Source: a virus (lineage: Duplodnaviria > Caudoviricetes). From it: a stretch of DNA of 64,000 bases. Below are positions 28,887 to 49,393 of the stretch, one piece after another. The position numbers and the translations under genes were made by a program. The first letter of the stretch is position 1. Each line of letters opens with the position of its first letter. Under the pieces are notes generated by a model. It was given only the letters and a program-made list of their open reading frames with translations, searched no databases and was not told the origin of the DNA. The stretch is from IMG/VR virus record IMGVR_UViG_3300031857_000001; one strand, 5' to 3'.

Positions 28887-29639
28887 TTATTTTAACATAC
28901 CTTGGACCAACCCATAATAGATAACTTTATATTTTTTCATAGAGCTTCTAATTTCTTTAGTACTCAAATTAGTCATTTCTCTCAGAGATAATAAAATAAT
29001 ATTTTTATTAAACTTATTATTTGAAGTCCCTATAAATATGTCATCATAATTTTGAAAAATTTCATATAAAGCCTGTCCTAGTTTTAACTCATTTTCGTTT
29101 AATGTATCATCCTCCATTAATAACTCTATTTGAATTATAAAATTTTTAATAATTGATTCAGAATCTAGTGAATCGTTATCAATACTGTATGAAAAATCCG
29201 GATTATTTTCCAAATCAGTTGAGATGTCTTCATAAGATATTTTTCTGTTCATATCTTTTTGGTCTTTTATAATTTGACCCATAAGATAATTTTTACAGAT
29301 TGTACCAAAATACGAATAAGCCTTCTTTTCTTTAGCCGGCTTAAACTTATCTATTTTGGTCATTAAAAACGAGTGAGTGTCTATATGAATTTCGTTAAAA
29401 TCCATATCTTTTCTATATAGCTTATATCTTCTTATTATAGAAGATATCATCTTATCTAAAGGTTTTCTTAGGTAGTCGTTGTATATTTTGTTTTTTTCTT
29501 CAAAAGTACTGGCCGATAAGAATCTTATAACGGCCATTTCTTCTCTTACATCGAAATAATTTGCTTGTTTTGGTTTTCTTCCTTTCTTCTTTAACTCAAC
29601 ATTTGTATCACCACTTCCGTTGAATTCTTCAATCATCAA
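28887..29639 (-). CDS. gp55: T4 gp55-like sigma factor for late transcription
   Basis: Region-2-like 'KIDKFKPAKEKKAYSYFGTICKNYL', similar to the gp55-family 'KFDP...AFSYFT' pattern. Confidence 0.65.
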   Translation of the reverse strand: MMIEEFNGSGDTNVELKKKGRKPKQANYFDVREEMAVIRFLSASTFEEKNKIYNDYLRKPLDKMISSIIRRYKLYRKDMDFNEIHIDTHSFLMTKIDKFKPAKEKKAYSYFGTICKNYLMGQIIKDQKDMNRKISYEDISTDLENNPDFSYSIDNDSLDSESIIKNFIIQIELLMEDDTLNENELKLGQALYEIFQNYDDIFIGTSNNKFNKNIILLSLREMTNLSTKEIRSSMKKYKVIYYGLVQGMLK

Positions 29640-30439
29640 TTATTGTTTGACTCGTATTTTATGGCTCTGTCATTAATAAAGAAATATTCTTTTTTTGCCG
29701 ATTCAATCCAAAACTTAACTTCATCTTCAACCAAACTTGTCTCACCATTCTTATAGTTCCAAAATATTGAACCAGTTCTAAAATTGGTATGTTTGTATCC
29801 TATTTTAGGAATTGTCATTATTCTAACAGAATTGTATGTCATTCTTAAAAAGAATTCATACCCAAATGTTAGTTTAAACGATGATTTCATTAACCCATAG
29901 TCGATGAACGCACTTTTACGAATCACCATTCCCGATGTTTGAAAATTTTGGAATTGATGTAGAGTTTCGTTACTTAGATAACCAATTTCTGATGTCATAT
30001 TGAGAGCAAAAGTAGCTTCATTGGTAAATCCAACAAATAATCCCTTTTCATCCGTGTCAATCACCACAGGTAAAAATGCATCAACATCTTTATAAATTTC
30101 TGAATATTTTTTTACATTTTTAAACCATATAGTTGAATATTCATCATCAAATTCAAAAAGAGATATCCATTCAGACGATGAAGCTCTTACTCCATAGTTA
30201 ATTTGTTTTGCATAATTTGGTTCATCCGTCCATTTATGTTTTACAACATTTAAATCACCAAAATCAAAAGAATTCAAAAATTCAACTAGAGATGTTTCAT
30301 CAGAATGAACAATTACTAATTCATTTATTCGAACTTTTTGAGTTTTGATAGATTCAATACATTTATTGAAATACTCTTCAAACCAAGGAGCCGAAGAAGA
30401 TTTTATTGGTAAAATTACCGATACATTAAATTTTTCCAT
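29636..30439 (-). CDS. GT2/GT-A fold glycosyltransferase
   Basis: 'VSVILPI...INELVIVH...NYGV...WISLFEFDD'. Confidence 0.75.
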   Translation of the reverse strand: MEKFNVSVILPIKSSSAPWFEEYFNKCIESIKTQKVRINELVIVHSDETSLVEFLNSFDFGDLNVVKHKWTDEPNYAKQINYGVRASSSEWISLFEFDDEYSTIWFKNVKKYSEIYKDVDAFLPVVIDTDEKGLFVGFTNEATFALNMTSEIGYLSNETLHQFQNFQTSGMVIRKSAFIDYGLMKSSFKLTFGYEFFLRMTYNSVRIMTIPKIGYKHTNFRTGSIFWNYKNGETSLVEDEVKFWIESAKKEYFFINDRAIKYESNNN

Positions 30440-30449
30440 ATTTTTAAAA

Positions 30450-31511
30450 TTATTCTACTGAAACTAATTTATTTAATTGTTCTTCAAACGAGGTTAATCT
30501 TGTATTAATGTAACCTTCAAATAATGAAACTGACTTTTCTTCAAAATATTCTTTCGTTGGTAGATTTTCTACAGCCTTTAACATCTCTTCATATAATGAA
30601 TCATTAACATTATCCTCGAGCCAATTTTGTAAGAAATCTGCAACAAAATCCACCATTTGAATTTTATTATTAACCCACAAACCATTATCAGAATTCATCC
30701 ATTGTGGGACCATATTAGGAGTAAGTCCTAAAACAGGTACCCCACACTTCATAGATTCAAGAGGGAAAGTTCCATAAGAACTAGTTTCATCAATCCAAAC
30801 GGATAAGAAACAATCTTGAAAAACACTTGCAAATTCTTTTTCAGATAATCCTCTCATATCTTTGAATGTAACCCATCTATATTGTGGAAACTTTACATAA
30901 AAATTCTTAATTAAATTAATACTGTCTCTTTGTTCTCTTGAATGAATTGCGATAATTGGCTTAGGAGGAAACTGTTGTTTCTCAAAATTATTTGAGATAT
31001 ATGGAGGTAATACATCATATGAAACGTTTCTCATAACGTTTTCTAAATATTCTTTTTGAGTATCTGAAGTCGTTATACACTTGTAAAATCCAAGTTGATT
31101 CCAATTTTCTCCGGGTTGGAGAGTTTCTAAAACATGGTCGTAAGCCTGAGATAATACAATTTTACCACAAGGTAATTTTGTTATTTGACTCATAACAAAA
31201 CCAAATAGTTCAGGAACAATTATAAAATCTTCAGGAGATACCTCCAAATTTTGACCTTCAATTGATTTATGAGGTAATTTTTCATCATATTCAGAACCCA
31301 ACCAACCTGAGACTCCTGTGTAGTCCGTTTTTTCATGAAGCATAACTGGGTTGTATCCCGAATTTAAAAGAGACATTGCAAATCTGTAAATGTAAGCAAC
31401 TGATGCCTTAGCATTCCCCTTTGTGTCTTGAACAATAAAGTATATTCTTGATTTTTTATTCTTTATGTTCTCAATTGATTTTTCTAATTTTGAAATCTGT
31501 TCTTGTGTCAT
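30450..31511 (-). CDS. GT-B (GT4-like) glycosyltransferase
   Basis: C-terminal 'ETSSYGTFPLESMKCGVPVLG' matches the GT4 E-x7-E type motif. Confidence 0.7.
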   Translation of the reverse strand: MTQEQISKLEKSIENIKNKKSRIYFIVQDTKGNAKASVAYIYRFAMSLLNSGYNPVMLHEKTDYTGVSGWLGSEYDEKLPHKSIEGQNLEVSPEDFIIVPELFGFVMSQITKLPCGKIVLSQAYDHVLETLQPGENWNQLGFYKCITTSDTQKEYLENVMRNVSYDVLPPYISNNFEKQQFPPKPIIAIHSREQRDSINLIKNFYVKFPQYRWVTFKDMRGLSEKEFASVFQDCFLSVWIDETSSYGTFPLESMKCGVPVLGLTPNMVPQWMNSDNGLWVNNKIQMVDFVADFLQNWLEDNVNDSLYEEMLKAVENLPTKEYFEEKSVSLFEGYINTRLTSFEEQLNKLVSVE

Positions 31512-31773: not shown

Positions 31774-32369
31774 TCTGTTATTTGTTTTAATGTTTTTTCG
31801 AATTCTTTTATAGAGCGTATCATATATAAGGAGTCGATGTTTTTATTATATTCGGTTTCGAATTTTATAACTATCTTTTCTTTAGGACACTCTAATAATA
31901 AAGAAGGGTTTGATGTAAGTAAAACATCAACCTCGCTCCACATTGAGCTCATAGTAATATTACTGTAAAATTTAATTTTCTCAACTAAACATCCAAATTT
32001 TGATAGAAAAAATAGAGTTGCCGGTTTTGATTTACTAATTTCATCGGAAACTATTAGTAATTCGTGGTTATCCCTTAAATTAATATAAATCTCATTTAAA
32101 TCATTAAACGTGTTATATTCTGATGATTGAGCGTGACCAAAAATTTCCATTGGAAATTCCTCATATAAAAAAGAATACATTTCATCATCATCTCTAAAAC
32201 TAAAATGTTTTTTAATTTCCAAATCTTCGACAGGATAAGTTATTTCATATTTAAAATCATTTTCATATTCAATACCTTCTGTCTTATCAATCATAAATTT
32301 TTGATAAGTCTGTTCTATTTTGTCCAAAGTATTTCTTAAAACTCCGTTTACCTCAATACCAATTCTCAT
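31767..32369 (-). CDS. HAD-superfamily 5'(3')-nucleotidase-like protein, degenerate motif I
   Basis: 'MRIGIEVNGVLRN' in place of the usual 'IGIDxDGVL'. Confidence 0.5.
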   Translation of the reverse strand: MRIGIEVNGVLRNTLDKIEQTYQKFMIDKTEGIEYENDFKYEITYPVEDLEIKKHFSFRDDDEMYSFLYEEFPMEIFGHAQSSEYNTFNDLNEIYINLRDNHELLIVSDEISKSKPATLFFLSKFGCLVEKIKFYSNITMSSMWSEVDVLLTSNPSLLLECPKEKIVIKFETEYNKNIDSLYMIRSIKEFEKTLKQITEC

Positions 32370-33088
32370 TATTCGTATCTTTTTAGAATTTTACTAATTA
32401 ATGGATTTCTAACAACATCTTTGTTATCGAATTCAAATACACCAACATCAGACAAATCTTTAAATTTTTCTATAGCGTCCCAAAGCCCCGAGTGTCTTTT
32501 ATCTTTATATCTATCAGTTTGTTCTAAATCACCTGAAATAAAAAACTTACTATTGAAACCTATTCTAGTTAATAGTAGTTTCATCTGATTTGGGGTTGAA
32601 TTCTGAGCCTCTTCGAAAATAAGAATTGAGTTGTCTATATTCATACCTCTCATATAGGCTAAAGCGAATACCTCAATTACATCTATTTGTTTTAATTTTT
32701 CACGAGCCTCCTTACCAATAATTTTATTCATTAGATAGTAAGATGGGAAAATGTAAGGGTCTAATTTTTCTTCAACATTACCAGGTAGAGAGCCAAGTTT
32801 TTCTTCGGCCTCAACTGCGGGTCTTACAATTATGATTTTTTCATATGGGGTTAATGGGTCTGATAATAAATCCAAAGCCGCTTTCATTGCGATATAACTT
32901 TTACCAACACCTGCGGGACCAGAACAAATTGTAATTTGATTATTTATTAATAAATCGTAATATTTTTTTTGATTTTCAGATAAAAATTTTTCCTTTGATT
33001 TTTTCTTTATTATTTCAGTGATTTGGTCTTTCCTACTCACATTTTTCTTCGGTTCTTCTTGAACTGAAATAGGTTTTTTTCTTGTCAT
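32369..33088 (-). CDS. phoH: PhoH-family ATPase
   Basis: 'GPAGVGKS', 'LGSLPGNVEEKLDPY', 'YMRG', 'EEAQN', 'LLTRIG', 'GDLEQTD'. Confidence 0.95.
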   Translation of the reverse strand: MTRKKPISVQEEPKKNVSRKDQITEIIKKKSKEKFLSENQKKYYDLLINNQITICSGPAGVGKSYIAMKAALDLLSDPLTPYEKIIIVRPAVEAEEKLGSLPGNVEEKLDPYIFPSYYLMNKIIGKEAREKLKQIDVIEVFALAYMRGMNIDNSILIFEEAQNSTPNQMKLLLTRIGFNSKFFISGDLEQTDRYKDKRHSGLWDAIEKFKDLSDVGVFEFDNKDVVRNPLISKILKRYE

Positions 33089-34062
33089 ATATTAATTTTA
33101 AAATAATTCATCCAATAGTCAATCATCTCGTCTAACATAGATTCGAATGTGTAATCATGTAACCATCCTGTAGATTTAATAAGTTTAGAACTATCTCCTT
33201 TTAAGTCATGTAATTCTTCAGGTCTCAAAAATTTTTCATCTTGTTTTACGTATTTTACCCAATCTAATTCTAGTTTACCAAAAACATATTCACATAATTC
33301 TCTAACTGAATGAGATACACCTGTTGCACACACAAAATCGTCAGGTTTATCTAACTGTAGAATTTCCCACATTGCCTTAACATAATCTTTAGCATGACCC
33401 CAATCCCGGGTGGCTTCCAAATTGCCTAATCTTAATTCATTTGATAGACCTAATTTAATTTTAACCGCTTCTTTACATACTTTATTTGTTACAAAGTTAG
33501 TTCCTCTTCTTGGTGATTCATGATTAAACAAAATACCGTTTGAGATAAACATTCCATAAGAATTACGATAATTCCTACAAATATTATAACTAAAAACTTT
33601 AGCACATCCATATGGTGAAACGGGATTCATCGGTGTGGTTTCCCTTTGAAATCCGTCAGAATCAATAGAATTACCAAACATTTCAGATGAAGATGCTTGA
33701 TATATTTTAGTATCAGGTTTAATTAGTTTAACGGTCTCCAATAAATTTAAAGTCCCTAATCCGGTTACATTTGCGGTATATATTGGTTGGTCAAATGAAA
33801 TTCTAACGTGAGATTGTGCGGCTAAATTGTATATCTCATCCGGCATTATTTTTTGGATGACCCCAACTAAAGAAGACATATCAGTCAAATCTGCGTATTC
33901 TAGCGTTATTTTATTATAGACATTATTTAATCTAGCAGTTTGATTTTCCGCAACGGAATTCCTTTTTAAAATTCCATATACATCATAACCTTTTTCTATT
34001 AAAAATTCGGCCAAGTATGAACCATCTTGACCATTTATACCTGTAATTAATGCTTTTTTCAT
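33085..34062 (-). CDS. gmd: GDP-mannose 4,6-dehydratase
   Basis: 'ALITGINGQDGSYLAE', 'YNLAAQSHV', 'YQASSSEMFG', 'SPYGCAK', 'LFNHESPRRG', 'RDWGHAKDYV'. Confidence 0.95.
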   Translation of the reverse strand: MKKALITGINGQDGSYLAEFLIEKGYDVYGILKRNSVAENQTARLNNVYNKITLEYADLTDMSSLVGVIQKIMPDEIYNLAAQSHVRISFDQPIYTANVTGLGTLNLLETVKLIKPDTKIYQASSSEMFGNSIDSDGFQRETTPMNPVSPYGCAKVFSYNICRNYRNSYGMFISNGILFNHESPRRGTNFVTNKVCKEAVKIKLGLSNELRLGNLEATRDWGHAKDYVKAMWEILQLDKPDDFVCATGVSHSVRELCEYVFGKLELDWVKYVKQDEKFLRPEELHDLKGDSSKLIKSTGWLHDYTFESMLDEMIDYWMNYFKINI

Positions 34063-35213
34063 AAATTTTTATTAACTATTTGAATTACTTTATTAATTTC
34101 ATCATAAGTCATTTGATGATTATTTGGAATATATATACCAAGTTCGTGTACCAATTTTGAGTTAGGCAAATTTTGTTTACCGTATCTTTCATACCAAAAT
34201 GGATGCTCGTTAATCGAACCACAAATTAAGGGCCGACATTCAATATTATTTTTGATTAACTCTTCAGTTAATGATTTGATATTTTTAGTTATAATGGGAA
34301 ATGAAAAATTTGATATAAATGAATTTTCAGGAGGGGAAATGCTCCAAAAAGTATTTTTAATTTCATTTTTATATCTTTCATAATTTTTATTTCTATTAGT
34401 TACAATAATATCTAATTTGTCTAATTGACCTAACCCGATAAAGGCTTGTAAATCTGTTGCTCTTAAATTAAACCCTGGATAATAAAAAGTATAAAGTGAC
34501 CTAAAATCATCAATATCATACTTTTTTCTTAAAGATTCTTGTTTTTCTTTAGGTAAGTCTCTGTCCCATCCGTGTGAACGTATTGATAATAAGATATGAT
34601 ATAAATCTTCATCATCAGTAGATATCATACCTCCCTCAATAGTTGATATATGATGTCCAAAATAAAATGAAAAAGTTGATAGGTCCCCAAAAGTACCCAA
34701 TAATTTATCTTCATATTTTGAGCCCATTGATTCACAAGTATCCTCAATTAACAAAATATTATTTTCTTCACATAATTTAATAATCTCATTCATATGATTT
34801 GGAAAACCTAAGACATGAACCAAAATAATTGCTGATGGACTATCATTTTTAATGATATTTTTTAGATGGTCAATGTCAAGTCCTAAATTATTCATGTCAC
34901 ATTCACACATTATTGGTTCCATACCTAATTGAATTGCTGGCGTGACGGTCGTGACCCAAGAAACCGCAGGAACCACTATTTTTTTATTCTTTAATCTACC
35001 TGATAATATTAAAGAATATATTGCAGCTAAATTAGCTGACGAACCAGAGTTAACAAATACTGAATATTTAACCCCTAACCATTTAGACCATTTTTTTTCA
35101 AACTCCTCAGTTAATTTTCCCTTAGTTAATCTTGGATTTGTCTCTAACCAATAGATTAATTTTTTTATGTCGTCAAAATTGATAGTATCTTTTACTAATG
35201 TAATTTTTTCCAT
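34059..35213 (-). CDS. colD: PLP-dependent GDP-4-keto-6-deoxymannose 3-dehydratase, ColD-like
   Basis: DegT/DnrJ fold with His in place of the Schiff-base Lys ('SFYFGHHISTIEGG'); 'SHGWDRDLP' lacks the E1 Cys cluster. Confidence 0.75.
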   Translation of the reverse strand: MEKITLVKDTINFDDIKKLIYWLETNPRLTKGKLTEEFEKKWSKWLGVKYSVFVNSGSSANLAAIYSLILSGRLKNKKIVVPAVSWVTTVTPAIQLGMEPIMCECDMNNLGLDIDHLKNIIKNDSPSAIILVHVLGFPNHMNEIIKLCEENNILLIEDTCESMGSKYEDKLLGTFGDLSTFSFYFGHHISTIEGGMISTDDEDLYHILLSIRSHGWDRDLPKEKQESLRKKYDIDDFRSLYTFYYPGFNLRATDLQAFIGLGQLDKLDIIVTNRNKNYERYKNEIKNTFWSISPPENSFISNFSFPIITKNIKSLTEELIKNNIECRPLICGSINEHPFWYERYGKQNLPNSKLVHELGIYIPNNHQMTYDEINKVIQIVNKNL

Positions 35214-35214
35214 A

Positions 35215-36141
35215 TTATTTTCTTATATTTTTATAATTTTCCTGAAACCATTTAACTGTTTTTTCTATACCATCTGATAAATCCGTAAATTCAAAATTTT
35301 CCGGTACATTAGATATTGCTGGCTTACGATATTGACCCATTGGTTTAGTATTATCGAAAATTATGTTATTAAAATCTATATCTAATTTATTACATATTAT
35401 TTTAGCAATTTCTAATATAGAATGTTCTTGTTTATTAATTGCCATAAATGGTTCATCACTTTTCCAATTATCGAGTGACCACATTATTAGCCTTGCCAAA
35501 TCTTCCGAATATATTACTTGACGTAAAGGACTACCATCTCCCCATATTACCATTTTTTCAGAGTTTTGTTTAGATAAATGAGCCCTATGTATCATAGCTG
35601 GAATCATGTGACCATCATCTAAATGAAAATTATCATTTATTCCATAAACATTTGTAGGGACAACAGATACCCAATTAGCGTTTAATACTTTTTTAATAAT
35701 ATTTGTCTGATAACCAGATAATCTTTTCGCATATGAATACCCATGATTTGAAAAGTGAGGAGGTCCTTGGTCAATTTGATTAGGGGTCAACGGAAATGTT
35801 ATGTTTTTATCAGGAAAAATACACGTTGATAATAAATTAACAAAATTAGGTATTTCATTTTTAAAACATGACTCAATAATATTATTATTGATAATAAAGT
35901 TATCAATAAAAAAACCTTTATTATTTTTCATATTGGCTTGAACTCCTCCGACCTTAGCCGCACAATGTATTACAGTGTCAATATTATTATGTTTAACATG
36001 ATATGTTATATAATCAATTGTTTTTTTATTATCTAGAAGATTTATATCTTCTTTTGTGTGATAGATTTGATTATCACCTAATATTTTTTTTAAAGCAGAC
36101 CCTACCAATCCGTTAGAACCTGTCACTAAAATTTTATTCAT
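35215..36141 (-). CDS. fcl: GDP-L-fucose/GDP-L-colitose synthase (epimerase/reductase, Fcl/ColC family)
   Basis: 'VTGSNGLVG', 'AAKVGGVQAN', 'LSTCIFP', 'YSYAK', 'PTNVYG.NDNF', 'WGDGSPLRQ'. Confidence 0.9.
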   Translation of the reverse strand: MNKILVTGSNGLVGSALKKILGDNQIYHTKEDINLLDNKKTIDYITYHVKHNNIDTVIHCAAKVGGVQANMKNNKGFFIDNFIINNNIIESCFKNEIPNFVNLLSTCIFPDKNITFPLTPNQIDQGPPHFSNHGYSYAKRLSGYQTNIIKKVLNANWVSVVPTNVYGINDNFHLDDGHMIPAMIHRAHLSKQNSEKMVIWGDGSPLRQVIYSEDLARLIMWSLDNWKSDEPFMAINKQEHSILEIAKIICNKLDIDFNNIIFDNTKPMGQYRKPAISNVPENFEFTDLSDGIEKTVKWFQENYKNIRK

Positions 36142-36923
36142 AATTTAATCCAATTTTCGCATCCTATTTCTGAAGTATCTAAAAACTGAACTCCAAACCA
36201 GTTAGATGGATATATTACTTTTTTATTATCATTATTATTTAACCAAGCTCCCCACCAACTAAAACTTGAGTTCGCAATTATATTATTCTTACACATTGAC
36301 ATTAGATATAAATCTTGATAGTCTATGTTTCCATTAATAAACGTTTTATTTTTAATAAACCCTAAATTTTCTTTACACCAATCAATGTCGTCAGAAAAAA
36401 TTAAGTAGTCCAAATCCTCACCAATTTTTGACACGGATTCTTTATAATAGTTTATAGTTTGTACCGGGTGAAAATGAGATTTTTGAACATAATTACCACG
36501 TCTAACATGTAGTGAACAAGTGTTTCCAGATAGAACATCTGAATATTTCATAGTAATAAATTCATATGTTTCAGAGTCAATCTCAAATAAATTTAAAATA
36601 TCTTGTCTTAAATTTTTAAAATATTTTTCATTTTGATAATAACCTTTTAATTTTAGATTATTTTTAGGGTTTGGTATTTCAGAATATTGTATGGGTTGAA
36701 TCGGTTCATGAGACGAATAGTTTGAGTACTCTGAAACAAATTTTATTTTTCTAAATATATTATTATAGTATAAATCAATTGGGCTATGAATTATAGATAT
36801 ATCCGAAATATCAACAACCATTTCTCTATTATCTCTAATTGATGTGTAATATGAAGCCGCTATTTGAAATATGTAGTTTCCTAACCCCCCTTTTAATTGA
36901 GGAGACACCAATAATTTTTCCAT
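36138..36923 (-). CDS. GT11 alpha-1,2-fucosyl/colitosyl-transferase
   Basis: 'GGLGNYIFQ', 'LHVRRGNY', 'IIANSSFSWWGAWL'. Confidence 0.92.
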   Translation of the reverse strand: MEKLLVSPQLKGGLGNYIFQIAASYYTSIRDNREMVVDISDISIIHSPIDLYYNNIFRKIKFVSEYSNYSSHEPIQPIQYSEIPNPKNNLKLKGYYQNEKYFKNLRQDILNLFEIDSETYEFITMKYSDVLSGNTCSLHVRRGNYVQKSHFHPVQTINYYKESVSKIGEDLDYLIFSDDIDWCKENLGFIKNKTFINGNIDYQDLYLMSMCKNNIIANSSFSWWGAWLNNNDNKKVIYPSNWFGVQFLDTSEIGCENWIKL

Positions 36924-36925
36924 AA

Positions 36926-37267
36926 TTAAAATCCCTTATAATATTTAACAGAATCTTCAATCAATGATTTATTAGTTAATATAGAATTCTCAATCATACG
37001 GTTTACCGCTTGTACATATTTAGGTCTTTTAACTTTAAAACAAATATCAATTTTACGTTTTAAATCGGCAATTTCCGAATCATTTTCCGCAACACTGATA
37101 GAGTCCTCAAGATACCACATGCGACAATGTAAAATAGCCAATTTTTCAATCACCTCTCCTATATTGTCAGTTTCAATTAAATCATCAGGAATGGTAACAT
37201 TTTTACTATTAGTTAGTATCTGATTTACTTTATTTTTAATAATTTCTTCAATTCTCTCTCCAATCAT
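36926..37267 (-). CDS. Small helical protein, DUF4254-like
   Basis: 'EKLAILHCRMWYLED...LKRKID'. Confidence 0.5.
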   Translation of the reverse strand: MIGERIEEIIKNKVNQILTNSKNVTIPDDLIETDNIGEVIEKLAILHCRMWYLEDSISVAENDSEIADLKRKIDICFKVKRPKYVQAVNRMIENSILTNKSLIEDSVKYYKGF

Positions 37268-37268: not shown

Positions 37269-37931
37269 TTAATATATTGTTATAAATTTATTTTTACCTT
37301 GGCTATTCAATGATTCGTTGTAACCTCTGATATATTGGTGATAATAAAATGAAGGTTTTTCAAAAACATAAGAATTAATCAAACACTTAATACTTGATTC
37401 CATTATGTGTACCTCCTTTGAATTTTCAATTATTTTAAGAATATCAAAAATTCCAAATTCAATTGGATTTTCAATTATTTTTAAATCGGTTCTAATTTTA
37501 TTTTTATCCACTTTACCGTGAACAAAAATGTATTCTTCATTGTTTGGATTAACATAATTAAAGGCGTCGTCTTCTTTATTAGGGTCTCTTAAAAATAAAA
37601 ATTTAGAAAAACGATATTCAAATGGCATTTCTGATATTTTATAAAATGCCTCATCAAACTTTGTCATCGGGAATTTCATTAATTTATCAAATCCAATCTT
37701 AATTACGTCATATTGAATATTATTTTCAATAATATATCTGTTAACTTCCCAGTCTTCACCGACAGGTAATACTTTAATATCTTCGTCATCTCGGTACATA
37801 TATTTGACATTTTCATAGTTATGTGGTTTACAAAAAACTATCACTTTACCATAAATTTCTTTATAATGTCTGACCATACCATTACATATTATATGGTCAC
37901 CTAATCCTAAATGGTGATAAATATATTTCAT
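37269..37931 (-). CDS. Putative glycosyltransferase-like protein
   Basis: N-terminal 'HHLGLGDHIICNG' resembles the GT-B GxGD motif; located inside the sugar operon. Confidence 0.5.
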   Translation of the reverse strand: MKYIYHHLGLGDHIICNGMVRHYKEIYGKVIVFCKPHNYENVKYMYRDDEDIKVLPVGEDWEVNRYIIENNIQYDVIKIGFDKLMKFPMTKFDEAFYKISEMPFEYRFSKFLFLRDPNKEDDAFNYVNPNNEEYIFVHGKVDKNKIRTDLKIIENPIEFGIFDILKIIENSKEVHIMESSIKCLINSYVFEKPSFYYHQYIRGYNESLNSQGKNKFITIY

Positions 37932-38554
37932 TGTGCCCTGCTAAATAAATTATTCATGTCATTTATAGTTTTTATATAATGAAAAGTAATATAATTTGAA
38001 GTATCGTCAACAGGGATATTATAAAAACTAGGTGGTTGAGAATTAAAAAAATTATAGTCAATTGATTTTATACCTAATTCTCTTAATAATAAACCTAGTG
38101 TAACATCTGAATAACCTGTGTTTAAAATTTTTAAGTGTCTAGTTATTTTGTGTAATAATTCTGTGTGTATTAGATATCCCGCCCCTCCTGAACAATAATT
38201 AAGACTTTTATCAACAGACCAAGTACCATTAAGAACTGAGCCGTGAACTGAATCTTTATCCAAAAGGTCCACAAAATTTTCTAATTTTTTAGTATTAACA
38301 AATGTATCATCATCACAAAAGAAAAACCATTCATAATCTTTTACATTATTTGAGACATAATGTAAAACATTAATATGTTTATCTTCATTTGAATGATAAT
38401 CTTTTCTATCCGATACCTTAATTATGTTTTTTTCAGTATCTTCGTGGTCAGAATAGAACAAACAATTAACATCTTTACCCCAAGTTTTTTTAACATTAAA
38501 ATATCTATCAGGATTCATAGACCCATGTAATAATACATATAATATCTTTTTCAT
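37928..38554 (-). CDS. GT31 Fringe/C1GALT1-like beta-1,3-glycosyltransferase
   Basis: 'WFFFCDDDTFVN', 'YCSGGAGYLI', 'SDVTLG', 'ITFHY'. Confidence 0.8.
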   Translation of the reverse strand: MKKILYVLLHGSMNPDRYFNVKKTWGKDVNCLFYSDHEDTEKNIIKVSDRKDYHSNEDKHINVLHYVSNNVKDYEWFFFCDDDTFVNTKKLENFVDLLDKDSVHGSVLNGTWSVDKSLNYCSGGAGYLIHTELLHKITRHLKILNTGYSDVTLGLLLRELGIKSIDYNFFNSQPPSFYNIPVDDTSNYITFHYIKTINDMNNLFSRAQ

Positions 38555-39210
38555 ATTACCGACAAATAATCTTGACCGACAGGTTTATCAAACTCATCAA
38601 TTCTATCCCCAATAAATCTACCCATTTCTCTTTTAATCGGAAAAGGTTTTTTTTCAAAAAATTCATCATGGGTAATTTTATCATTTTCAAATAAAGAAAA
38701 AACAGTTTTTAGAAAAGTTTGGTCTGAACCGTATGATAAATTTTTATTTTTTACAAAATCGTTTATCATATCAGTTATAGATATAAAACCTTTTTTAATT
38801 CCCCACATTCCCCCTAAAATACCTAATCTATCACTCCCGAAAGGAATTCCATGGGCAGGATGGTCTCTCATAACATGTAAAGATTTTCCACTATTAATCC
38901 ATTCATCAACCGCCATTTTTTCTCTAACAGTTATTCTTGAATCGGCATCTCTAAAAACACAATATTCTGAGTCAGGTAAGTCTATTGCAAAAAATCTCCA
39001 AAACATCCCATAAAGTTTTTTTTCGGTTACATCGATTGTTAAAACTCCCAAATCGTTTAATTTATTTATAGTTTCTTTTGGTACTGTATTATCATAATAA
39101 ACGACCATTTGCCAATCTGAATATATGGTTTTCCATAATTCGGCATTTCTAATTGCCCCAACATTATATATGGGTTTATCCCCCCATAAACTAAAACTCA
39201 AATATTTCAT
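38551..39210 (-). CDS. Putative GT-A fold glycosyltransferase of an uncharacterised family
   Basis: 'SFSLWG', 'MFWRF', DxD in 'RDADSR', 'MRDHP.H', 'LGGMWG', 'DQTFL'. Confidence 0.55.
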   Translation of the reverse strand: MKYLSFSLWGDKPIYNVGAIRNAELWKTIYSDWQMVVYYDNTVPKETINKLNDLGVLTIDVTEKKLYGMFWRFFAIDLPDSEYCVFRDADSRITVREKMAVDEWINSGKSLHVMRDHPAHGIPFGSDRLGILGGMWGIKKGFISITDMINDFVKNKNLSYGSDQTFLKTVFSLFENDKITHDEFFEKKPFPIKREMGRFIGDRIDEFDKPVGQDYLSVI

Positions 39211-40625
39211 TAATTCTCAACTAATTCTTTTATATTTTTATCAAAATCAACATAATGGTCTTGAGTTCCATGTGAATTCATTTGATAATGCTTTATTAAC
39301 CCTTGAGTAATAAACGGATTATGTTTGTACATTAAACAATAAAAAGTTGTAGACCTTTCGTGTCCGTGACCTGCTGTTTTAGAGTGTTTAATTAATTCCG
39401 ACAGAGGTTCAAACCACTTCATATAATCATTAAAAAATGATACTTTCATAGTACAATTACTAGTGGTAGACCAAACCAACTTAGGGTTTTGTCTCATATA
39501 AAACCTAATTGTTTTTTCAAGGTCGACTTTATAAACCTGTTTGATTGCTCCAAATAATTCCTCAACCCAATTTTTATTATCTATAAAATGATAATTCGAA
39601 CAAGGGAATGGTATGTAACCAATCATATTTTGATTTTCATACATAAATTTATCTATGATTTGTTCTAAATTTTTATTTAAAATAACATCATACTCAAATA
39701 GATTTACATATGGAGTTTTTATTAGGTTGTTTTTCCACAACGCATACCATCCTGTGTATGCATTTATATTTGGATACTCCTCTAAATTATATGGTAAATT
39801 ACGAGCAATAATAATATTTGAATTATCCTCTATTTTATCAACAGGTCTATTACCTAAAAAGACATATCTATATTTTTTTAAATTACTAAATTTACCTGAT
39901 TTTTCGTAATCAATTATAATATCTTGGTCGTGACAAAATATGAAAGTTTCACAAACATTATTGTTAGTAATATCTAAAGGTAAATTATTTTTAAATTTTT
40001 CTGAGAAAAATATTCGATTATTTTCCCATGTATCATTTGTCATACCAACAGATAAGTGAGTAACCCTAACATCTGTAACAATTCCTATTTTAACACCATC
40101 TAAATAATTTGGAACACAAAACGACAAATCGTAAAAATGGAATCCATCGAATTCCTCATCAAATTTGTGTTTGATTTTTGTTTTATCCAAAACCATAAAT
40201 AATCCATCAATCAATACAACCTCTTCAACATTACTAATTGCTTTTGAATAAGTACTAGTCCATTTTTTTCCTTCATGTTTATGGTTTACAATACCATACA
40301 TTGTTTGAGATACTTCCCACCATTTACCTGATTCAGGTAAGTATTTAGAACCCGCGAGACCAATTACACCAAATTCAGGACTCTTATTAAAATGTTTTAT
40401 TATTTTTTTACCCCAATTATCCGTATCAAATTCTAAATCATCGTGACACAACACTACAATGTCATGTTGTGATTTTTCTAAAATTTCATTATAAGTTTTA
40501 GGTAGGGATTTTTCACCATTATTAACAACTTCAATAATTTCAACATTTTTCAATCCACAAGATTTTTTCAATATTTCAACATATTGTGGATTTGAGTTTC
40601 TTGTACTATATCCTATTGTAATCAT
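39210..40625 (-). CDS. Two-domain glycosyltransferase (Glyco_tranf_2_5-like plus a second GT-A-like domain)
   Basis: 'VLCHDDLEF', 'VIGLAG', 'IDGLFM', 'FHFYDLSFC'; second domain 'YTGWYALWKN...LFEYDV'. Confidence 0.75.
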   Translation of the reverse strand: MITIGYSTRNSNPQYVEILKKSCGLKNVEIIEVVNNGEKSLPKTYNEILEKSQHDIVVLCHDDLEFDTDNWGKKIIKHFNKSPEFGVIGLAGSKYLPESGKWWEVSQTMYGIVNHKHEGKKWTSTYSKAISNVEEVVLIDGLFMVLDKTKIKHKFDEEFDGFHFYDLSFCVPNYLDGVKIGIVTDVRVTHLSVGMTNDTWENNRIFFSEKFKNNLPLDITNNNVCETFIFCHDQDIIIDYEKSGKFSNLKKYRYVFLGNRPVDKIEDNSNIIIARNLPYNLEEYPNINAYTGWYALWKNNLIKTPYVNLFEYDVILNKNLEQIIDKFMYENQNMIGYIPFPCSNYHFIDNKNWVEELFGAIKQVYKVDLEKTIRFYMRQNPKLVWSTTSNCTMKVSFFNDYMKWFEPLSELIKHSKTAGHGHERSTTFYCLMYKHNPFITQGLIKHYQMNSHGTQDHYVDFDKNIKELVEN

Positions 40626-41218
40626 ATCCCTGTACTCCCAAAACCGTTATTACCTCTATCCTTGTTTATTTCTTCTTTGGTTTCTTGTAAATTGACCCAT
40701 TTTCCGTTAACGACTGGACACAAAACTGCTTGACCTATTTTTGTATCTTTATTTATTGTGTACGCATAACTATTTGTATTGAAAATAATAACTTGTATCT
40801 CACCGGTATATCCATTATCAACAGTTCCAGGGGAATTCATAACAAATAAACCTTGGTTTATCGCCAAACCACTTTTAGACCTAACTTGTATTTCATACCC
40901 ATCTTTAATATCGAATGATAAACCCGTTCTAACTAAACCCCTACCCAAAGGTTGAATAGTTGTGTCCTCCGTTGCGTATAAATCAAATCCAGAATCGGAT
41001 GGATAGTTGTAAAAAGGGTCCTTTGCCTCAGGGCGTAACTTCTTATAATTTAAAGTTATCTTTGGGGTATAATTCAAGATATCATTTTCAAGTTCCTTAA
41101 CATCAACCCCCGTAACTTTTAAAATCTCATCATAATCAAAATCATAACTGTTATCGGAAAGTAATTCTTTAATTTTTTCCGATTCTTCTTTTGACATTCC
41201 AAAAAAGTCTAAACTCAT
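40622..41218 (-). CDS. dut: Trimeric dUTPase with acidic N-terminal extension
   Basis: 'SGFDL', 'RSKSGLA', 'GTVDNGYTGEI', 'RGNNGFGSTG'. Confidence 0.95.
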   Translation of the reverse strand: MSLDFFGMSKEESEKIKELLSDNSYDFDYDEILKVTGVDVKELENDILNYTPKITLNYKKLRPEAKDPFYNYPSDSGFDLYATEDTTIQPLGRGLVRTGLSFDIKDGYEIQVRSKSGLAINQGLFVMNSPGTVDNGYTGEIQVIIFNTNSYAYTINKDTKIGQAVLCPVVNGKWVNLQETKEEINKDRGNNGFGSTGI

Positions 41219-41943
41219 TTTAATTCTTTTAATTTTTTTATTATATCAATCAAAACTTGAACATCACGTTCACAATATTCACTTATTTCTTTTAATTTTC
41301 TATCAATCCAATATGAATCATGAACCATATCTCCTGTTATCTCACCTTCTTTTGATGTTGGTATGTCCATACAAGAACAAAGCAAATCTAATGACCCTAT
41401 TGAACTATACGCCCCATATTGCCAAATTTCCTTGGTATCGATTGCCTTAATCTCCCAAGGCTTTGTGTCATATGAAGGTAGAATTGATGGGGGCATTAGA
41501 CCATTGATAATCATACGTTTGGCTAACATGGGTATATCAAAATTTTTAAGATTATGACCACATAAGTGAAAATCCAATTTACCACATCTGTCCAATAATT
41601 TTTGAACATCCTTTAGTAACTCTAACTCATCGTCACCTGAAAATGTTTGCATTTTCGTTTCACCCTTGTCTGTAACAAATGCAACACTAACACAAACAAT
41701 CTTTGAAAATTCTGGAACTAACGCGGCTCTTTTTGCAAATATTTTATCTCGTTTTTTTTCCTCCTGTTCTATATTACTTACCGTATTATCATCTTCAGGA
41801 AATCTTTTTAAAAACCAATCATAGTAATTTATAAATTGAGTTGCCACTTTAGGATTTAATGCCTGACATGTAGTGAAATCAGGACATCCCCCAACCGTTT
41901 CAATATCAATGAATAATATTTTGGTGATAGGGATTTTTATCAT
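41215..41943 (-). CDS. DEDDy 3'-5' exonuclease (PolB-exo-like)
   Basis: 'FIDIETV', 'GHNLKNFDIP', 'EYCERDV'. Confidence 0.88.
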   Translation of the reverse strand: MIKIPITKILFIDIETVGGCPDFTTCQALNPKVATQFINYYDWFLKRFPEDDNTVSNIEQEEKKRDKIFAKRAALVPEFSKIVCVSVAFVTDKGETKMQTFSGDDELELLKDVQKLLDRCGKLDFHLCGHNLKNFDIPMLAKRMIINGLMPPSILPSYDTKPWEIKAIDTKEIWQYGAYSSIGSLDLLCSCMDIPTSKEGEITGDMVHDSYWIDRKLKEISEYCERDVQVLIDIIKKLKELK

Positions 41944-45894: not shown

Positions 45895-48800
45895 ATGGCG
45901 GGTCAGAATATTAATCAATACGTTTACCCAAATTTAAATCCGAAGTTAGCGTTAGAGAGTTATGATATGTCCTTAACCTCAGATGAGAAAGGATTTAATA
46001 TGGAGGTGATATTTTCTCCGTATTTGATTGCTCAAACATATGGTAACAGACTTCCATTCTATTTCGATATTAATAGTTCAATAACTAACCAAAAATTTAC
46101 ATTAAATTATAAAGAATATAACAGAAATAATATTTTTGTTTCTGAAAATTATTATAACATAAATAATGAGGATTTAACTTGTTATTCGGCTCAGACATCT
46201 TGTGATATTGGGTTAACGGGTATCGACAATGGACTCGTTACGGGAATGACAGGATATTCGATTACATTTACAAAGGGTTTATTCTCAGACGGATTAAAAT
46301 TTGAGAGATTATATTTTGATAGGAGATTAAAGTTATTTCAAGTAACCGCCAATACCAACTCACCAAATATTAGATTTTCAGGATTTCCAAATACTGTTTT
46401 ATATGAAGTTGTAAGTAAATACGGTCAAACCGAAGGATTATATCACGAATTATATGGTGGTTTTTATCAAGGTTTTTATCGTTTATTTGGGTATGATTAT
46501 GATATTTTTCCTGAAAGAGTAAACAAGGGTTGGACAGTTGAATTATTATTAAGGCCAAGATTAATAAGTGAATATTTTCCAGGACCAGGTGAAACTACAT
46601 TAAATTTATTATATCCCGAAAATGCTAATACATTTTTCTATTTGGGAACAAGAGCTGAAAATAAATTTTACCACCACGCTGACGGAACTCCAAATTGTTT
46701 TACAGGATATACTAGATTTACTTCACCATTGACGGGAATATCGACTTGTGCTTGTTGTAACAGAACCGTAACAAATAGTAGGTGTATATATGTTTATCCA
46801 CCACGTTCTAAAGACGGAGTTCATGATACTCATGTTAATTATGGATGTGATAAGTGCGGTTCGGATAAAATGGTACAGGCAACGTGTGGATGTGGTTGTG
46901 ATAAAATAGCGTGTGCCACATGTGGGTGGGAATGTCAAATTCATGAATGCGCGGTTATTGTCGAAGTTACTCCAACTCCCACCCCAACACCAACCGCAAC
47001 TTTAAGTAACTGTATATTACCTCCAGTTTGTACACCGACATGTAATTCATGTTCAAATTGTACTGATTGTGTTGATTGTGTTTATACAGGATTTTCGTCA
47101 ATTGAAAATACTTGTGAGGTTGACCCAAAAATGGATGTGTTATCAAACAACATTTCATTTAGACTTTGTGGAGACCCTAAAAATCCGGGTATTGGAATAA
47201 GAGCAATTAAATTCACAGGTGGATGTGAAACAACGGGTTCTTGTGAAACTTCAGGAATTACATACACCACAGGTTATACAGTACTAGATTATTGTACTCC
47301 GCCAATTTATGAATACTGTGAAAGTATTAATTATCCGTTCATTGAACAAGAACACTGGTTCCAACTCGATGCGGTTTGGGAAAGATATACATGGTTAGAT
47401 ACATGTGATTTATGGTATAGAGGTGGATTAGGAGATATTACAAAAAAAGTATATTTAGAATCACTGGCAAATAATACAGTTTCTTTAATTGATACGTCAT
47501 ATACAAGGATGGACCCAAAGTCCACTTTGGAAATTGATATTGTAAGTTTAAACGAAAAGTGGTTACTCGAAGAAAATTTTAGAAAAGGTAGATTGAAAAT
47601 CTATATTAACGGTAAACTGTTTTATACCATTGAGGATTTTGAAGAGATAATTCCTAGAGCCCTTAATACCGATAAGGAAAAACAGGTCGGAGTTCCGTTT
47701 AACGTATCATGGGGTGGTGGAACACAAGGATTGAGGGAAAATTTAACATTTAACCCTAAGCCCGCTTGTGACATTGTATTTGGTGTTGAGATTGGTTTGT
47801 TATTAATAGGGTTGATTAGTCCAGGTTCTATAAACGCACAATACACATTAACAACTGGTTTACCTTACAAGGACGAAATACAGGTGAATTTTAGAAATAT
47901 CCTTAATAAAAAAGATGGTGGTCACTATGAAATTGATAGTAAAGTGATTATACCACCTTTTGGAATTTCCGGTGTTACATACGAAACATTAAATGAGAAT
48001 TTTGATGATTTGGATGGAACCGGATATTATCTAAATGTTGAAGTATTTCCAAAAACAATTATATCAAATTTTGAGGTGGATTCTAATATAATATTCCTAT
48101 CACCAACCCCAACACCAACTCCACCAGTCACCCCAACAATAACACCATCGCAAACTGAAACCCCTCAACCAACACCTACTCAGACCGAGACACCTCAACC
48201 AACACCTACAAATACCGAAACTCCTACACCAACACCAACCCCAACATTTACCCCAACTCCTGAACAAACAATAACTGATGCGATAATAACTAGTGAAATT
48301 GAATATATTTCAGTTGATGGATTATTCTATTTAAAATTTGTTGACCCCGAACAAGCAATAAACGATGCAATAATTGTTAATGGAAATGAATATATATCTG
48401 TTGGAGAAAACTTATATCTAAGTTTTGTTGACCCGATTATTACCACCCCAACACCTACTCCAACTAACACCAATACACCTACTCCAACTCCGACTTCTAC
48501 TATAACTCAAACACCTACTCCTACACCTACAATATCGGTTATTTGTGATACATTTACATTTACAGGTAATAATGCCACTATAACTGTAAACAGTGCAATT
48601 AAAACATCAAACGGTGGATGGGATGGCTCTGCATACTCGGTAGAATCTTATACTTCTCCTGTATCAGTATCATTCCAAGTTTCAAGTAGTAATTTATATT
48701 TGATGGGAGGATTTTCATATAATCCAAACGCAAATCCTGGTGACACATATGTGGACATTTCTTATGGACTTTATATCCAACCTAACTTCTTGGAAATATA

Positions 48801-49353: not shown

Positions 49354-49372
49354 AACAACATAATAAACTAAT

Positions 49373-49382
49373 GATATTTATA
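49373..49382 (+). promoter_or_regulatory. Putative late promoter GATATTTATA
   Basis: 11 nt upstream of the ATG at 49394. Confidence 0.6.
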
Positions 49383-49393
49383 AAATAAAAAAC

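Follow-up and report, generated by a model that had tools for sequence, protein, structure and literature searches.

A candidate GDP-L-colitose pathway in the variable glycosylation island of a T4-like freshwater phage

Four adjacent sugar genes in a viral DNA stretch of 64,000 nucleotides (IMG/VR record IMGVR_UViG_3300031857_000001; the whole stretch is referred to as the window) raise the question of which sugar this phage may make and what may receive it. A sequence-only reading had proposed a complete pathway to GDP-colitose, the activated form of a rare sugar, together with a matching GT11 transferase. The explanation that we favour, and consider reasonably probable, is that the genes form a nucleotide-sugar cassette that would make GDP-L-colitose from GDP-mannose within the phage's variable glycosylation island.

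The ORF listing of the window agrees exactly with the contiguous arrangement described earlier: four head-to-tail ORFs, for GT11, the reductase, the PLP enzyme and Gmd, occupy positions 33085-36923 of the minus strand (Table 1). Overlaps of 4 nt join GT11 to the reductase and the PLP enzyme to Gmd, a single nucleotide separates the reductase from the PLP enzyme, and Gmd overlaps the downstream PhoH gene by 4 nt. Comparison with orthologues in related phage contigs gave dN/dS values of 0.04-0.12 for Gmd, 0.06-0.12 for the PLP enzyme, 0.06-0.09 for the reductase (0.04-0.12 across these three) and 0.17-0.28 for GT11. Since purifying selection acts on all four, these are real genes and not chance ORFs.

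Table 1. Genes of the glycosylation island and its borders in the window.
Feature	Position	Strand	Remarks
Downstream island genes	28887..31511	-	g250, GT2, weak GT1-like gene
g250, no function assigned	within 28887..31511	-	downstream island gene
GT2	29636-30439	-	PF00535 1.1e-06
GT1-like gene, weak	30450-31511	-	PF00534 0.0034
PhoH-like ATPase	32369..33088	-	PF02562 4.2e-63; not pathway gene
Gmd, GDP-mannose 4,6-dehydratase (P0004)	33085..34062	-	325 aa; PF16363
ColD-like PLP/PMP-dependent sugar 3-dehydratase, DegT fold (P0001)	34059..35213	-	384 aa; PF01041
Fcl/ColC-type SDR reductase (P0002)	35215..36141	-	308 aa; PF01370
GT11 glycosyltransferase (P0003)	36138..36923	-	261 aa; PF01531
g113, conserved viral hypothetical	36926-37267	-	upstream island gene
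g220, GT9/DUF6165-like fold, lead only	37269-37931	-	upstream island gene
Fringe/GT31-like transferase	37928-38554	-	Pfam Fringe 1.9e-12, Galactosyl_T 2.5e-07
g219, GT8 glycogenin-like GT-A fold	38551-39210	-	invariant RDTD; predicted structure
GT2-type glycosyltransferase, 471 aa	39210..40625	-	PF13712 Glyco_tranf_2_5 9e-32
dUTPase	40622-41218		phrog_135
DNA polymerase exonuclease	41215-41943		phrog_25228
Glycosyltransferase-like protein, 422 aa	41940..43208	-	phrog_7162 glycosyltransferase 1.1e-40

The gene identities proposed earlier hold at the family level, with Pfam matches to Glyco_transf_11, Epimerase, DegT_DnrJ_EryC1 and GDP_Man_Dehyd. Gmd matches GDP_Man_Dehyd over its full length (9.3e-116, 387 bits, profile positions 1-332) and has all of the catalytic residues Ser126-Glu127, Tyr151 and Lys155; against the NCBIfam gmd model TIGR01472 it scored 384 bits, slightly under the cut-off of 415.

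The PLP enzyme matches DegT_DnrJ_EryC1 (9.5e-73, residues 17-380) and is thus a fold-type I PLP/PMP enzyme. Its nearest solved structure in a PDB search was E. coli O55 ColD (2gms; 4.8e-74, 253 bits, 37% identity), compared with 163 bits for E1 and 116 bits for the perosamine synthase PerA (3bn1). The motif SFYFGHHIS lies at residues 182-190, and its counterpart in O55 ColD, SSFYSHHIA, was checked and is correct. Within it, His187 occupies the alignment column of the catalytic ColD residue His188; the column is marked by the PDB mutants 3b8x (H188N) and 2r0t (H188K), which differ from the wild type there only, and the alignment confirms the earlier statement that His replaces the Schiff-base Lys. 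Asp158 is conserved with ColD, and the HH motif is invariant across the aligned phage and bacterial relatives. The Cys-rich stretch that follows the catalytic His in E1 (3bcx) aligns with a Cys-free stretch of the phage enzyme, and a search of residues 189-262 found no Cys, so that the [2Fe-2S] cluster of E1/RfbH is missing, as had been said. The substitutions S187N/H188K turn ColD into an aminotransferase. At the position of ColD Ser187 the phage enzyme has Gly186, and a GHH motif is present in 86 of 120 aligned relatives; Ser187 of ColD influences the choice of reaction, and the site is reported not to be conserved among dehydratases (bioRxiv 10.1101/2021.09.04.459008). The ColD mechanism has been described, and His in place of Lys is a hallmark of the 3-dehydratases (PMC8987622; bioRxiv 10.1101/2021.09.04.459008).

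Phylogenetic analysis placed the PLP enzyme beside the characterised ColDs and not among them. In a tree with Lys-bearing paralogues as the outgroup, O55 ColD belonged to a clade (clade A, 100% support) that holds the characterised ColDs of E. coli O55, Y. pseudotuberculosis and C. jejuni HS:5/11, which are mutually 62-67% identical (PMC10440746). The phage enzyme fell in a sister clade with the GHH motif (clade B, 99% SH-aLRT), and the AU test rejected its joining to clade A (p 0.015). Because the phage enzyme is in clade B and not in clade A, its ColD activity is something that we infer, and is not established by membership. Clade B is large and without biochemically characterised members. 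Roughly two dozen clade-B loci of bacteria and archaea have both a Gmd (44-53% identity) and an SDR of the Fcl-like kind within 5 kb; many other bacterial clade-B genes have no Gmd within that distance, and the clade may therefore not have one common substrate.

The reductase matches Epimerase (2.7e-37) and scored 186 bits against the GDP-L-fucose synthase model NF047922, whose equivalog cut-off of 500 is not reached; its assignment is at the family level, where ColC and Fcl are not separable by sequence. The SxC, YxxxK and His motifs of O55 ColC have their aligned counterparts in Ser105, Cys107, Tyr135, Lys139 and His178, and presumably the Ser-Tyr-Lys triad and the epimerisation Cys and His have the same roles as in E. 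coli GMER. The PDB matches were to human GDP-fucose synthase (4e5y; 1.9e-65, 224 bits) and E. coli Fcl (1.6e-38, 136 bits); O55 ColC gave 153 bits at 34% identity. The earlier description as an Fcl/ColC reductase is thus right as to family and motifs, but the scores favour true GDP-fucose synthases over ColC.

GT11 matches Glyco_transf_11 (4.7e-28, 98.7 bits; cut-off 23.9). Its donor motif, HVRRGN from His139, has Asn where most family members have the Asp of HxRRxD; this motif and the C-terminal SSFSWWGAWL are kept in the closest orthologues. The family does include the O55 colitosyltransferase WbgN, as had been pointed out, and WbgN is 32% identical to the phage protein. WbgN and FUT2 use GDP-Col and GDP-Fuc alike, and the availability of the donor decides the product (PMC11987014). 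Since GT11 enzymes take both donors, the phage transferase is no specific match for colitose, and the word 'matching' holds for the family only. It would transfer L-colitose, L-fucose or both from their GDP-sugars to an acceptor, probably a terminal galactose.

How the genes are inherited was examined in 43 related IMG/VR phage contigs. Orthologues of Gmd, 73-88% identical, adjoin a ColD-like gene in about 40 of the 43 loci, and an Fcl-type SDR stands beside this pair in most of them. Of the four, GT11 shows the weakest conservation and occurs in no more than some of the related loci; it and other glycosyltransferases differ from contig to contig, while Gmd remains linked to the ColD-like gene and to a reductase. 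Three different SDRs are paired with Gmd and the ColD-like gene: type 1 (70-80% identity), type 2 (41-46%) and a third, found in L002, of 264 aa with a weak Epimerase match. That the replicon is a phage was confirmed, since its relatives are viral contigs of IMG/VR, and the T4 Gp23 capsid gene (220 bits) is carried by a relative of 308,574 bp that is complete, with terminal repeats. The window phage is an uncultured freshwater (lake) T4-like phage of about 300 kb. No NTP_transferase for GDP-mannose synthesis was found in two near-complete relatives, the 308-kb one has none, and GDP-mannose must therefore come from the host, in agreement with the earlier proposal. Lipid-linked export genes were likewise not found in the complete relatives.

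The reactions, the sugar and the acceptor can be inferred as follows. Gmd would dehydrate host GDP-mannose to GDP-4-keto-6-deoxy-D-mannose. A Schiff base would next be built on the 4-keto group by the PMP form of the ColD-like enzyme, His187 would deprotonate C4' and the hydroxyl at C3 would depart; hydrolysis would yield GDP-4-keto-3,6-dideoxy-D-mannose and ammonia, with PMP regenerated by glutamate. C5 epimerisation and NAD(P)H-dependent reduction at C4, both by the Fcl-type reductase, would then lead to GDP-L-colitose (3-deoxy-L-fucose). Because the reductase lies nearer to a true GDP-fucose synthase than to ColC, it may also convert the Gmd product directly, and some GDP-L-fucose would probably be formed in parallel. 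Synthesis of GDP-colitose, perhaps alongside GDP-fucose, is thus what we regard as probable. Soluble GT11 would cap, with colitose or fucose, a glycan made by neighbouring phage glycosyltransferases, on either the giant Thr/Pro-tract proteins beside the island or an intermediate of a host surface polysaccharide. Of the route from Gmd through ColD and ColC to GDP-L-colitose proposed earlier, the three families are present, adjacent and co-inherited, but the dehydratase is outside the ColD clade and the reductase is Fcl-like.

The reductase scores could also be explained by a GDP-L-fucose pathway, in which Gmd and a true Fcl feed GT11 as an alpha-1,2-fucosyltransferase and the clade-B His enzyme carries out non-ColD chemistry. 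The role of the His enzyme would then lie with another nucleotide sugar or a different deoxy or amino product. The absence of characterised enzymes from clade B, its many members without a nearby Gmd, and the presence of GT11 in 103 phage records are in keeping with this reading. So is a precedent: the T4-like cyanophage S-SCSM1 has clustered Gmd, GDP-fucose synthase, alpha-1,2-fucosyltransferase and several other glycosyltransferases (PMC9602691). However, the His enzyme is the island gene most tightly linked to Gmd, kept even where the Fcl type or GT11 changes, and purifying selection acts on it as strongly as on Gmd. The nearest solved relative of this Fe-S-free, His-for-Lys DegT enzyme is ColD, and the trio of ColD-like, Gmd and Fcl-like genes recurs in unrelated bacteria and archaea. 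We consider an essentially GDP-L-fucose pathway unlikely.

Less likely again is another GDP-3,6-dideoxyhexose, for example D-arabino (tyvelose-like) or L-ribo, with the C4/C5 stereochemistry set by the reductase. The three SDRs that related phages pair with the same Gmd and ColD-like genes would fit such a product, as would the case of C. jejuni, where the dideoxy-heptose isomer formed after one and the same 3-dehydratase depends on which C4 reductase follows it (PMC10440746). The window reductase, however, has Cys and His where ColC conserves them, and it is similar to enzymes giving L-galacto products; from this configuration the L-xylo isomer, colitose, is predicted.

It is very improbable that the PLP enzyme belongs with the GDP-perosamine-type 4-aminotransferases (Per/RfbE) or the E1 (RfbH)-type CDP-sugar 3-dehydrases, in spite of the names 'RfbH' and 'CDP-6-deoxy-D-xylo-4-hexulose-3-dehydrase' given by JGI and NCBI to proteins 84-90% identical to it and of RfbH (NF011936) being its best NCBIfam model: that score, 233 bits, is far under the cut-off of 423, the Schiff-base Lys and the four-cysteine [2Fe-2S] motif are both missing, ColD scores above E1 and PerA, the Lys paralogues form the outgroup, and the adjoining gene is Gmd and not a CDP-glucose dehydratase. 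The earlier exclusion of both identities was therefore sound. The automatic names on the relatives arose because NCBIfam gave no ColD-specific match.

Among known systems, the GDP-L-colitose pathway of E. coli O55:H7 (Gmd, ColD/WbdK, ColC, WbgN) shares all four enzyme families with the phage, at identities of 37% for ColD, 34% for ColC and 32% for WbgN. The catalytic His, Asp and HH motif of ColD, the lack of an Fe-S cluster, the SxC, YxxxK and His motifs of the reductase and the GT11 motifs are common to both. In contrast, O55 ColD has SHH and belongs to clade A where the phage enzyme has GHH and belongs to clade B, and the phage reductase is nearer to true Fcl than to ColC. The O55 cluster includes manB/manC, wzx, wzy and a priming transferase, none of which the phage has, and its genes are split around gnd, whereas the four phage genes are packed into a single block. 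A search of 5,426 E. coli genomes gave O55 colD as the sole match at the DNA level.

The window phage is not alone in having such a block. A cultured T4-like Synechococcus phage, ACG-2014f (NC_026927.1), already has the Gmd, Fcl-like, ColD-like and GT11 families contiguous (gp223-gp226), with more glycosyltransferases after them, so that the window adds an example to a kind of system already on record. The PLP enzyme of ACG-2014f likewise has the GHH motif and belongs to clade B. Identities to the window phage are 48% for Gmd, 29% for the reductase, 38% for the PLP enzyme and 31% for GT11 (gp226); the gene order differs, and ACG-2014f infects a marine cyanobacterium, the window phage being from freshwater. 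The GenBank names in ACG-2014f are generic ('nucleotide-sugar epimerase', 'aminotransferase', 'glycosyltransferase'), and a literature search found no paper tying colitose to a virus-encoded pathway. Cyanophage S-SCSM1 resembles the window phage in its Gmd, Fcl and GT-type cluster, but its gene list as described has no DegT-type 3-dehydratase, and its product is therefore fucose and not a 3,6-dideoxy sugar; neither 'aminotransferase' nor 'dideoxy' was found in the text of that paper (PMC9602691). E1 (RfbH/DdhC) and SpnQ share with the phage enzyme the DegT fold and His in the Lys position, and deoxygenate C3 via a PMP Schiff base (PMC8987622). They depend, however, on a [2Fe-2S] cluster together with a partner reductase and use CDP- or dTDP-sugars, whereas the phage enzyme lacks the cysteines and adjoins Gmd.

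The cassette lies among further glycosyltransferase genes (Table 1). The PhoH-like ATPase gene just downstream of Gmd is a conserved anchor, with orthologues 72-82% identical and in the same place in most loci, and the downstream island genes beyond it are syntenic in most related phage contigs. For g219, the predicted model (pLDDT 77) gave glycogenin 3rmv as the top Foldseek match (6.9e-8, TM 0.57). The 471-aa GT2-type gene forms the upstream edge of the sugar genes, with the dUTPase gene next to it; the 422-aa glycosyltransferase-like gene is situated past the dUTPase and exonuclease genes. Seven giant proteins with long Thr/Pro tracts are encoded on either side of the island.

A tentative and rather doubtful extension is that the phage glycosylates its own coat rather than remodelling the host envelope: island transferases would O-glycosylate the Thr/Pro tracts, colitose would cap the glycans, and the GHH clade would be a widespread source of dideoxyhexoses. 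The transferases concerned would be the soluble GT31-like, GT8 glycogenin-like, GT2 and GT11 enzymes and others. If this were so, the cap would be a sugar recognised by few lectins and glycosidases, and the GHH sister clade of ColD would point to an origin of 3,6-dideoxyhexoses, so far unrecognised, in phages, bacteria and archaea of aquatic habitats.

Exact short contigs from two lake RNA libraries map to the ColD-like, reductase and GT11 genes, which is a weak hint of their expression.

Four sugar genes lie contiguously at 33085-36923 of the window, within a long series of minus-strand genes. Counted from the GT11 gene, neighbouring genes overlap by 4 nt at the first and third junctions and are 1 nt apart at the second. 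This arrangement, noticed in the sequence-only reading, is borne out by the ORF coordinates, and Pfam and NCBIfam concur on all four genes at the family level. Against the NCBIfam models, Gmd scored 384 bits for gmd (cut-off 415) and the reductase 186 bits for GDP-L-fucose synthase (cut-off 500); the best model for the PLP enzyme was RfbH (233 bits, cut-off 423), and no ColD-specific NCBIfam match was found for it.

Genes of the sugar block, with the adjoining PhoH gene, and glycosyltransferase candidates of the island (the glycosyltransferase-rich stretch around the block)
Feature	Position	Strand	Length	Evidence or remark
GT11	36923-36138	minus	261 aa	Pfam GT11 4.7e-28
SDR reductase	36141-35215	minus	308 aa	Pfam NAD-dependent epimerase/dehydratase 2.7e-37
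PLP enzyme	35213-34059	minus	384 aa	Pfam DegT/DnrJ/EryC1 9.5e-73
Gmd	34062-33085	minus	325 aa	Pfam GDP-mannose 4,6-dehydratase 9.3e-116, full length
PhoH	33088-32369	minus		overlaps the Gmd gene by 4 nt
Fringe/GT31-like transferase	island			candidate partner glycosyltransferase
GT8 glycogenin-like GT-A protein	island			model pLDDT 77; Foldseek 6.9e-8, TM 0.57
GT2 (two proteins)	island			candidate partner glycosyltransferases
GT1-like protein	island			weak assignment
PHROG glycosyltransferase	island
GT9/DUF6165-like protein	island			lead only

The top matches of the PLP enzyme among all PDB sequences were four E. coli O55 ColD entries (253 bits, 4.8e-74), ahead of E1 (163 bits) and perosamine synthase (116 bits). 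Identity to O55 ColD, taken from the O-antigen region of O55:H7 strain CB9615, was 37% over the whole length (8e-81). Residues 181-190, FSFYFGHHIS, aligned to FSSFYSHHIA of ColD, so that His187 falls in the column occupied by Asn in 3b8x and Lys in 2r0t, i.e. at the catalytic His188 of ColD. Such a replacement of Lys by His is the hallmark of sugar 3-dehydratases, and the four-Cys [2Fe-2S] motif present in E1 and SpnQ is absent from ColD (PMC8987622). In the PDB alignment, through which alone E1 was compared, the Cys-rich stretch downstream of the E1 catalytic His faces a Cys-free stretch of the phage enzyme, and there is no cysteine at all in residues 189-262. A named E1/RfbH reference was sought with NF011936 in two genomes and 14 control genomes, and none scored above the cut-off. 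Read with PMC8987622, the data rule out a Lys-dependent perosamine synthase, because His replaces the Lys, and E1, because the Fe-S cysteines are absent. The substitution, the missing cluster and both exclusions had been put forward from the sequence alone, and all of them hold.

More than 570 stretches coding for relatives of the PLP enzyme were found when one genome of each prokaryotic species was scanned. A tree of 105 sequences was rooted on unnamed Lys-bearing paralogues; named E1 and Per sequences were not among them. The His enzymes form a single group (99% SH-aLRT). E. coli O55 ColD belongs to a 15-member clade (100%) with the motif SHH, most members of which have Gmd and an Fcl-like gene immediately upstream. 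The phage enzyme is located in a separate 75-member sister clade (99%), here called clade B, with the motif GHH. Joining of the phage group to the ColD clade was rejected by the AU test at p 0.015, a value weakened by the choice of the group after the tree had been built. The characterised ColD-type enzymes, from E. coli O55, Y. pseudotuberculosis and C. jejuni HS:5/HS:11, share 62-67% identity (PMC10440746) and therefore all belong to the ColD clade. No characterised member of clade B was found. In ColD, Ser187 and His188 together govern the choice between dehydration and transamination, and the phage enzyme has Gly at the Ser187 position. This site has been reported not to be conserved among dehydratases (preprint 10.1101/2021.09.04.459008).

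Strict ColD membership is thus unsupported, because of the sister-clade placement, the AU test and the change of Ser187 to Gly. However, ColD-like activity is the best reading of the sequence: the catalytic apparatus is the same, an Fe-S partner would not be needed, the gene is tied to Gmd, and some two dozen loci of clade B, in alphaproteobacteria, SAR11-type bacteria, Flavobacterium, CPR bacteria and archaea, show the same ColD-like/Gmd/Fcl-like trio. Other members of clade B lack a Gmd gene within 5 kb, and the clade may therefore be heterogeneous. The earlier assignment therefore stood as far as the nearness to the ColD side is concerned, but not as membership of the characterised clade.

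The reductase is 34% identical to O55 ColC. Among its PDB matches, eukaryotic GDP-fucose synthases rank far above E. coli Fcl (224 bits for human 4e5y against 136 bits). The enzyme retains the SxC, YxxxK and His motifs at ColC-conserved positions (Ser105, Cys107, Tyr135, Lys139 and His178); from E. coli GMER, we take these residues to be the triad for reduction and the acid/base pair for epimerisation. These motifs predict fucose-type stereochemistry, which on a 3-deoxy substrate corresponds to colitose. Judging by its sequence, the enzyme could also turn the Gmd product straight into GDP-fucose, and fucose may be co-produced with colitose.

GT11 shares 32% identity with the O55 colitosyltransferase WbgN, and its sequence shows the motifs of the family. 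Its residues 139-144 read HVRRGN, with Asn for the usual Asp of HxRRGD, as in the closest orthologues (loci L007, L008, L010-L012 and L047). WbgN and human FUT2 each transfer both colitose and fucose, the product being set, in the authors' conclusion, by donor availability (PMC11987014). GT11 thus fits colitose without pointing to it specifically; of its description as a matching colitose transferase, the relationship to WbgN remains and the specificity does not.

Taken as a whole, the block most likely encodes a colitose-type pathway, at a probability somewhat better than even. Host GDP-mannose would be converted by Gmd, the ColD-like 3-dehydratase and the Fcl-type epimerase/reductase into GDP-L-colitose, with a likely side flow to GDP-L-fucose. 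The genes, their motifs and their context favour the complete pathway with GT11 that was proposed earlier; the sister-clade position of the PLP enzyme, the possible fucose co-product and the breadth of GT11 count against it. Complete IMG/VR relatives (G003 and G004) were used to stand in for the whole genome of the window's phage. The T4 Gp23 major capsid gene (~220 bits) was found in a 308,574-bp relative (terminal repeats, CheckV 100%) and in a 272-kb relative (91%). Neither of these two contains NTP_transferase (ManC), a Bac_transf priming transferase, a Wzy_C ligase/polymerase or a Wzx-type flippase; the lack of ManC is consistent with the earlier suggestion that GDP-mannose is supplied by the host.

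GT11 would attach this sugar to a glycan made by the enzymes encoded nearby. We lean slightly towards cytoplasmic O-glycosylation of giant phage proteins as the target. Seven giant proteins flank the island (7200-17299 and 45895-63998; genes 7200, 11279, 45895, 52939, 56238, 58033 and 60063). Long (T-P / T-x)n tracts run through them, Ser/Thr/Pro making up as much as 80% of a 40-residue window, and these tracts cause their shared phrog_15511 matches. The Thr/Pro tracts are candidate O-glycosylation substrates, or may be mere flexible linkers. Alternatively, the acceptors may be lipid-linked intermediates of host surface polysaccharides, which host machinery would export. No membrane helix was predicted in the island proteins (28.9-43.2 kb), but WbgN-like soluble O-antigen transferases also have none, so the missing helices do not decide the target. 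DNA hypermodification was rejected, as GDP-deoxyhexose donors and GT11/GT31/GT2/GT8-type enzymes build glycans, and we know of no DNA glycosylation that uses either. Two other proteins are encoded amid the giant Thr-rich ones: a subtilase-family protease (1553-3880, PF00082 4.8e-31) and, after it, a 1,052-aa protein (3960-7118) bearing a ConA-like/Laminin_G_3 lectin domain.

The cultured Synechococcus phage ACG-2014f (NC_026927.1) has the same four genes contiguously as gp223-gp226, generically annotated and followed by more transferases that end near a tail-fibre gene. Identities to the window's proteins are 48% for Gmd (gp223), 29% for the Fcl-like reductase (gp224), 38% for the ColD-like enzyme (gp225, in clade B and with the same GHH motif) and 31% for GT11 (gp226). 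GT11 was detected in 103 phage records, mainly of cyanophages. An uncultured phage of 642,428 bp (LR756502.1) has a ColD-like gene (38%) at about 437.6 kb and GT11 (38%) at about 464.0 kb, ~26 kb apart, so that unrelated giant phages may also have the pathway. When the 3.8-kb block was compared by megablast with 50,697 phage records, nothing matched, and the window's phage is absent from INPHARED. Cyanophage S-SCSM1 is described as encoding Gmd, GDP-fucose synthase and an alpha-1,2-fucosyltransferase (PMC9602691). The literature searched contained no paper tying colitose to a virus-encoded pathway; the idea seems unreported, although the genes themselves are already in public phage genomes.

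Rare-sugar synthesis is well documented in giant eukaryotic viruses. Outside the O-antigens of a small number of Gram-negative bacteria, colitose is, to our knowledge, almost unknown. Should phages make it, virus-encoded rare-sugar synthesis would reach T4-like phages beyond fucose, and a large sister clade of ColD would become a candidate 3-dehydratase family. Besides phages, clade B was found in SAR11-type, Prochlorococcus, roseobacter, rhizobial, verrucomicrobial, flavobacterial, CPR and archaeal genomes; its phage members are currently mislabelled RfbH/E1 by automatic pipelines. With ACG-2014f in culture, the question of a phage or a host glycan is directly testable. New enzymes for GDP-colitose and colitosylated glycans would be of moderate practical interest.

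Metagenomes contain thousands of relatives of the PLP enzyme with 84-90% identity, on contigs of up to 328 kb; the source of one is named as an uncultured Caudovirales phage. In about 40 of 43 IMG/VR loci Gmd adjoins the ColD-like gene, and the order of the genes that follow, PhoH and another four, is conserved. These loci have either a reductase of the window's type (70-80% identity, upstream) or one of a second type (41-44%, between or after ColD and Gmd), with a third, shorter SDR in locus L002. GT11 orthologues are present in only a subset of these loci, and the upstream transferases vary from contig to contig. The constancy of Gmd and the ColD-like gene against changing transferases indicates a stable sugar-nucleotide core within a variable glycosyltransferase island. 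Pairwise dN/dS was 0.17-0.28 for GT11, and the other three genes of the block, at 0.04-0.12, lie in the range of PhoH, all values being approximate because dS is close to saturation.

Near-identical DNA was found in lake and freshwater metagenomes of several studies. Two lake RNA libraries (X19 and X20) yielded exact short contigs (157-261 nt, low depth, DNA carry-over possible) that map to the genes for the ColD-like enzyme, the reductase and GT11, and these hint only weakly at expression; bare island stretches in the same libraries are uninformative. The Bacteroidota-type promoter TTG-N19-TAnnTTTG was not enriched (4 matches against 2.3 expected) and lends no support to a Bacteroidota host. 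Where DNA contigs show joints across the island, the shorter side matches over only 20-38 letters, and these joints were left out as evidence of strain variants. Genes for dUTPase and a DNA polymerase exonuclease lie within the island.

Several minor observations concern the related loci. The island varies in a mosaic fashion among otherwise syntenic genomes (L002, L006-L048), with Gmd and the ColD-like gene fixed, three reductase types, GT11 present or absent, and upstream transferases swapped. Many relatives have, close to the ColD-like gene, a copy (71-77% identity) of g113 (36926-37267), a small gene without a family, even when they lack GT11 and the type-1 reductase; in Atlas g113 matched viral hypotheticals only, plus DUF4254 at 0.87, a weak lead. 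L033 and L047 have, besides the His enzyme, a second DegT gene with the normal catalytic Lys, presumably a sugar aminotransferase, and amino sugars may be made there. The closest relatives outside viral databases (ColD-like 60%, Gmd 75%) are on L049 (CAZGLZ010000001.1), a 105-kb contig of a MAG labelled Chloracidobacterium; it groups with the phage clade and may be a phage contig binned in a bacterial MAG. L009 has a partial GT11 match of 102 residues with a stop codon, possibly a decaying copy. In the Gracilibacteria contig L096, GT11 (gene near 5907) has an in-frame stop in the region of the SSFSWW motif, perhaps because this lineage uses an alternative genetic code.
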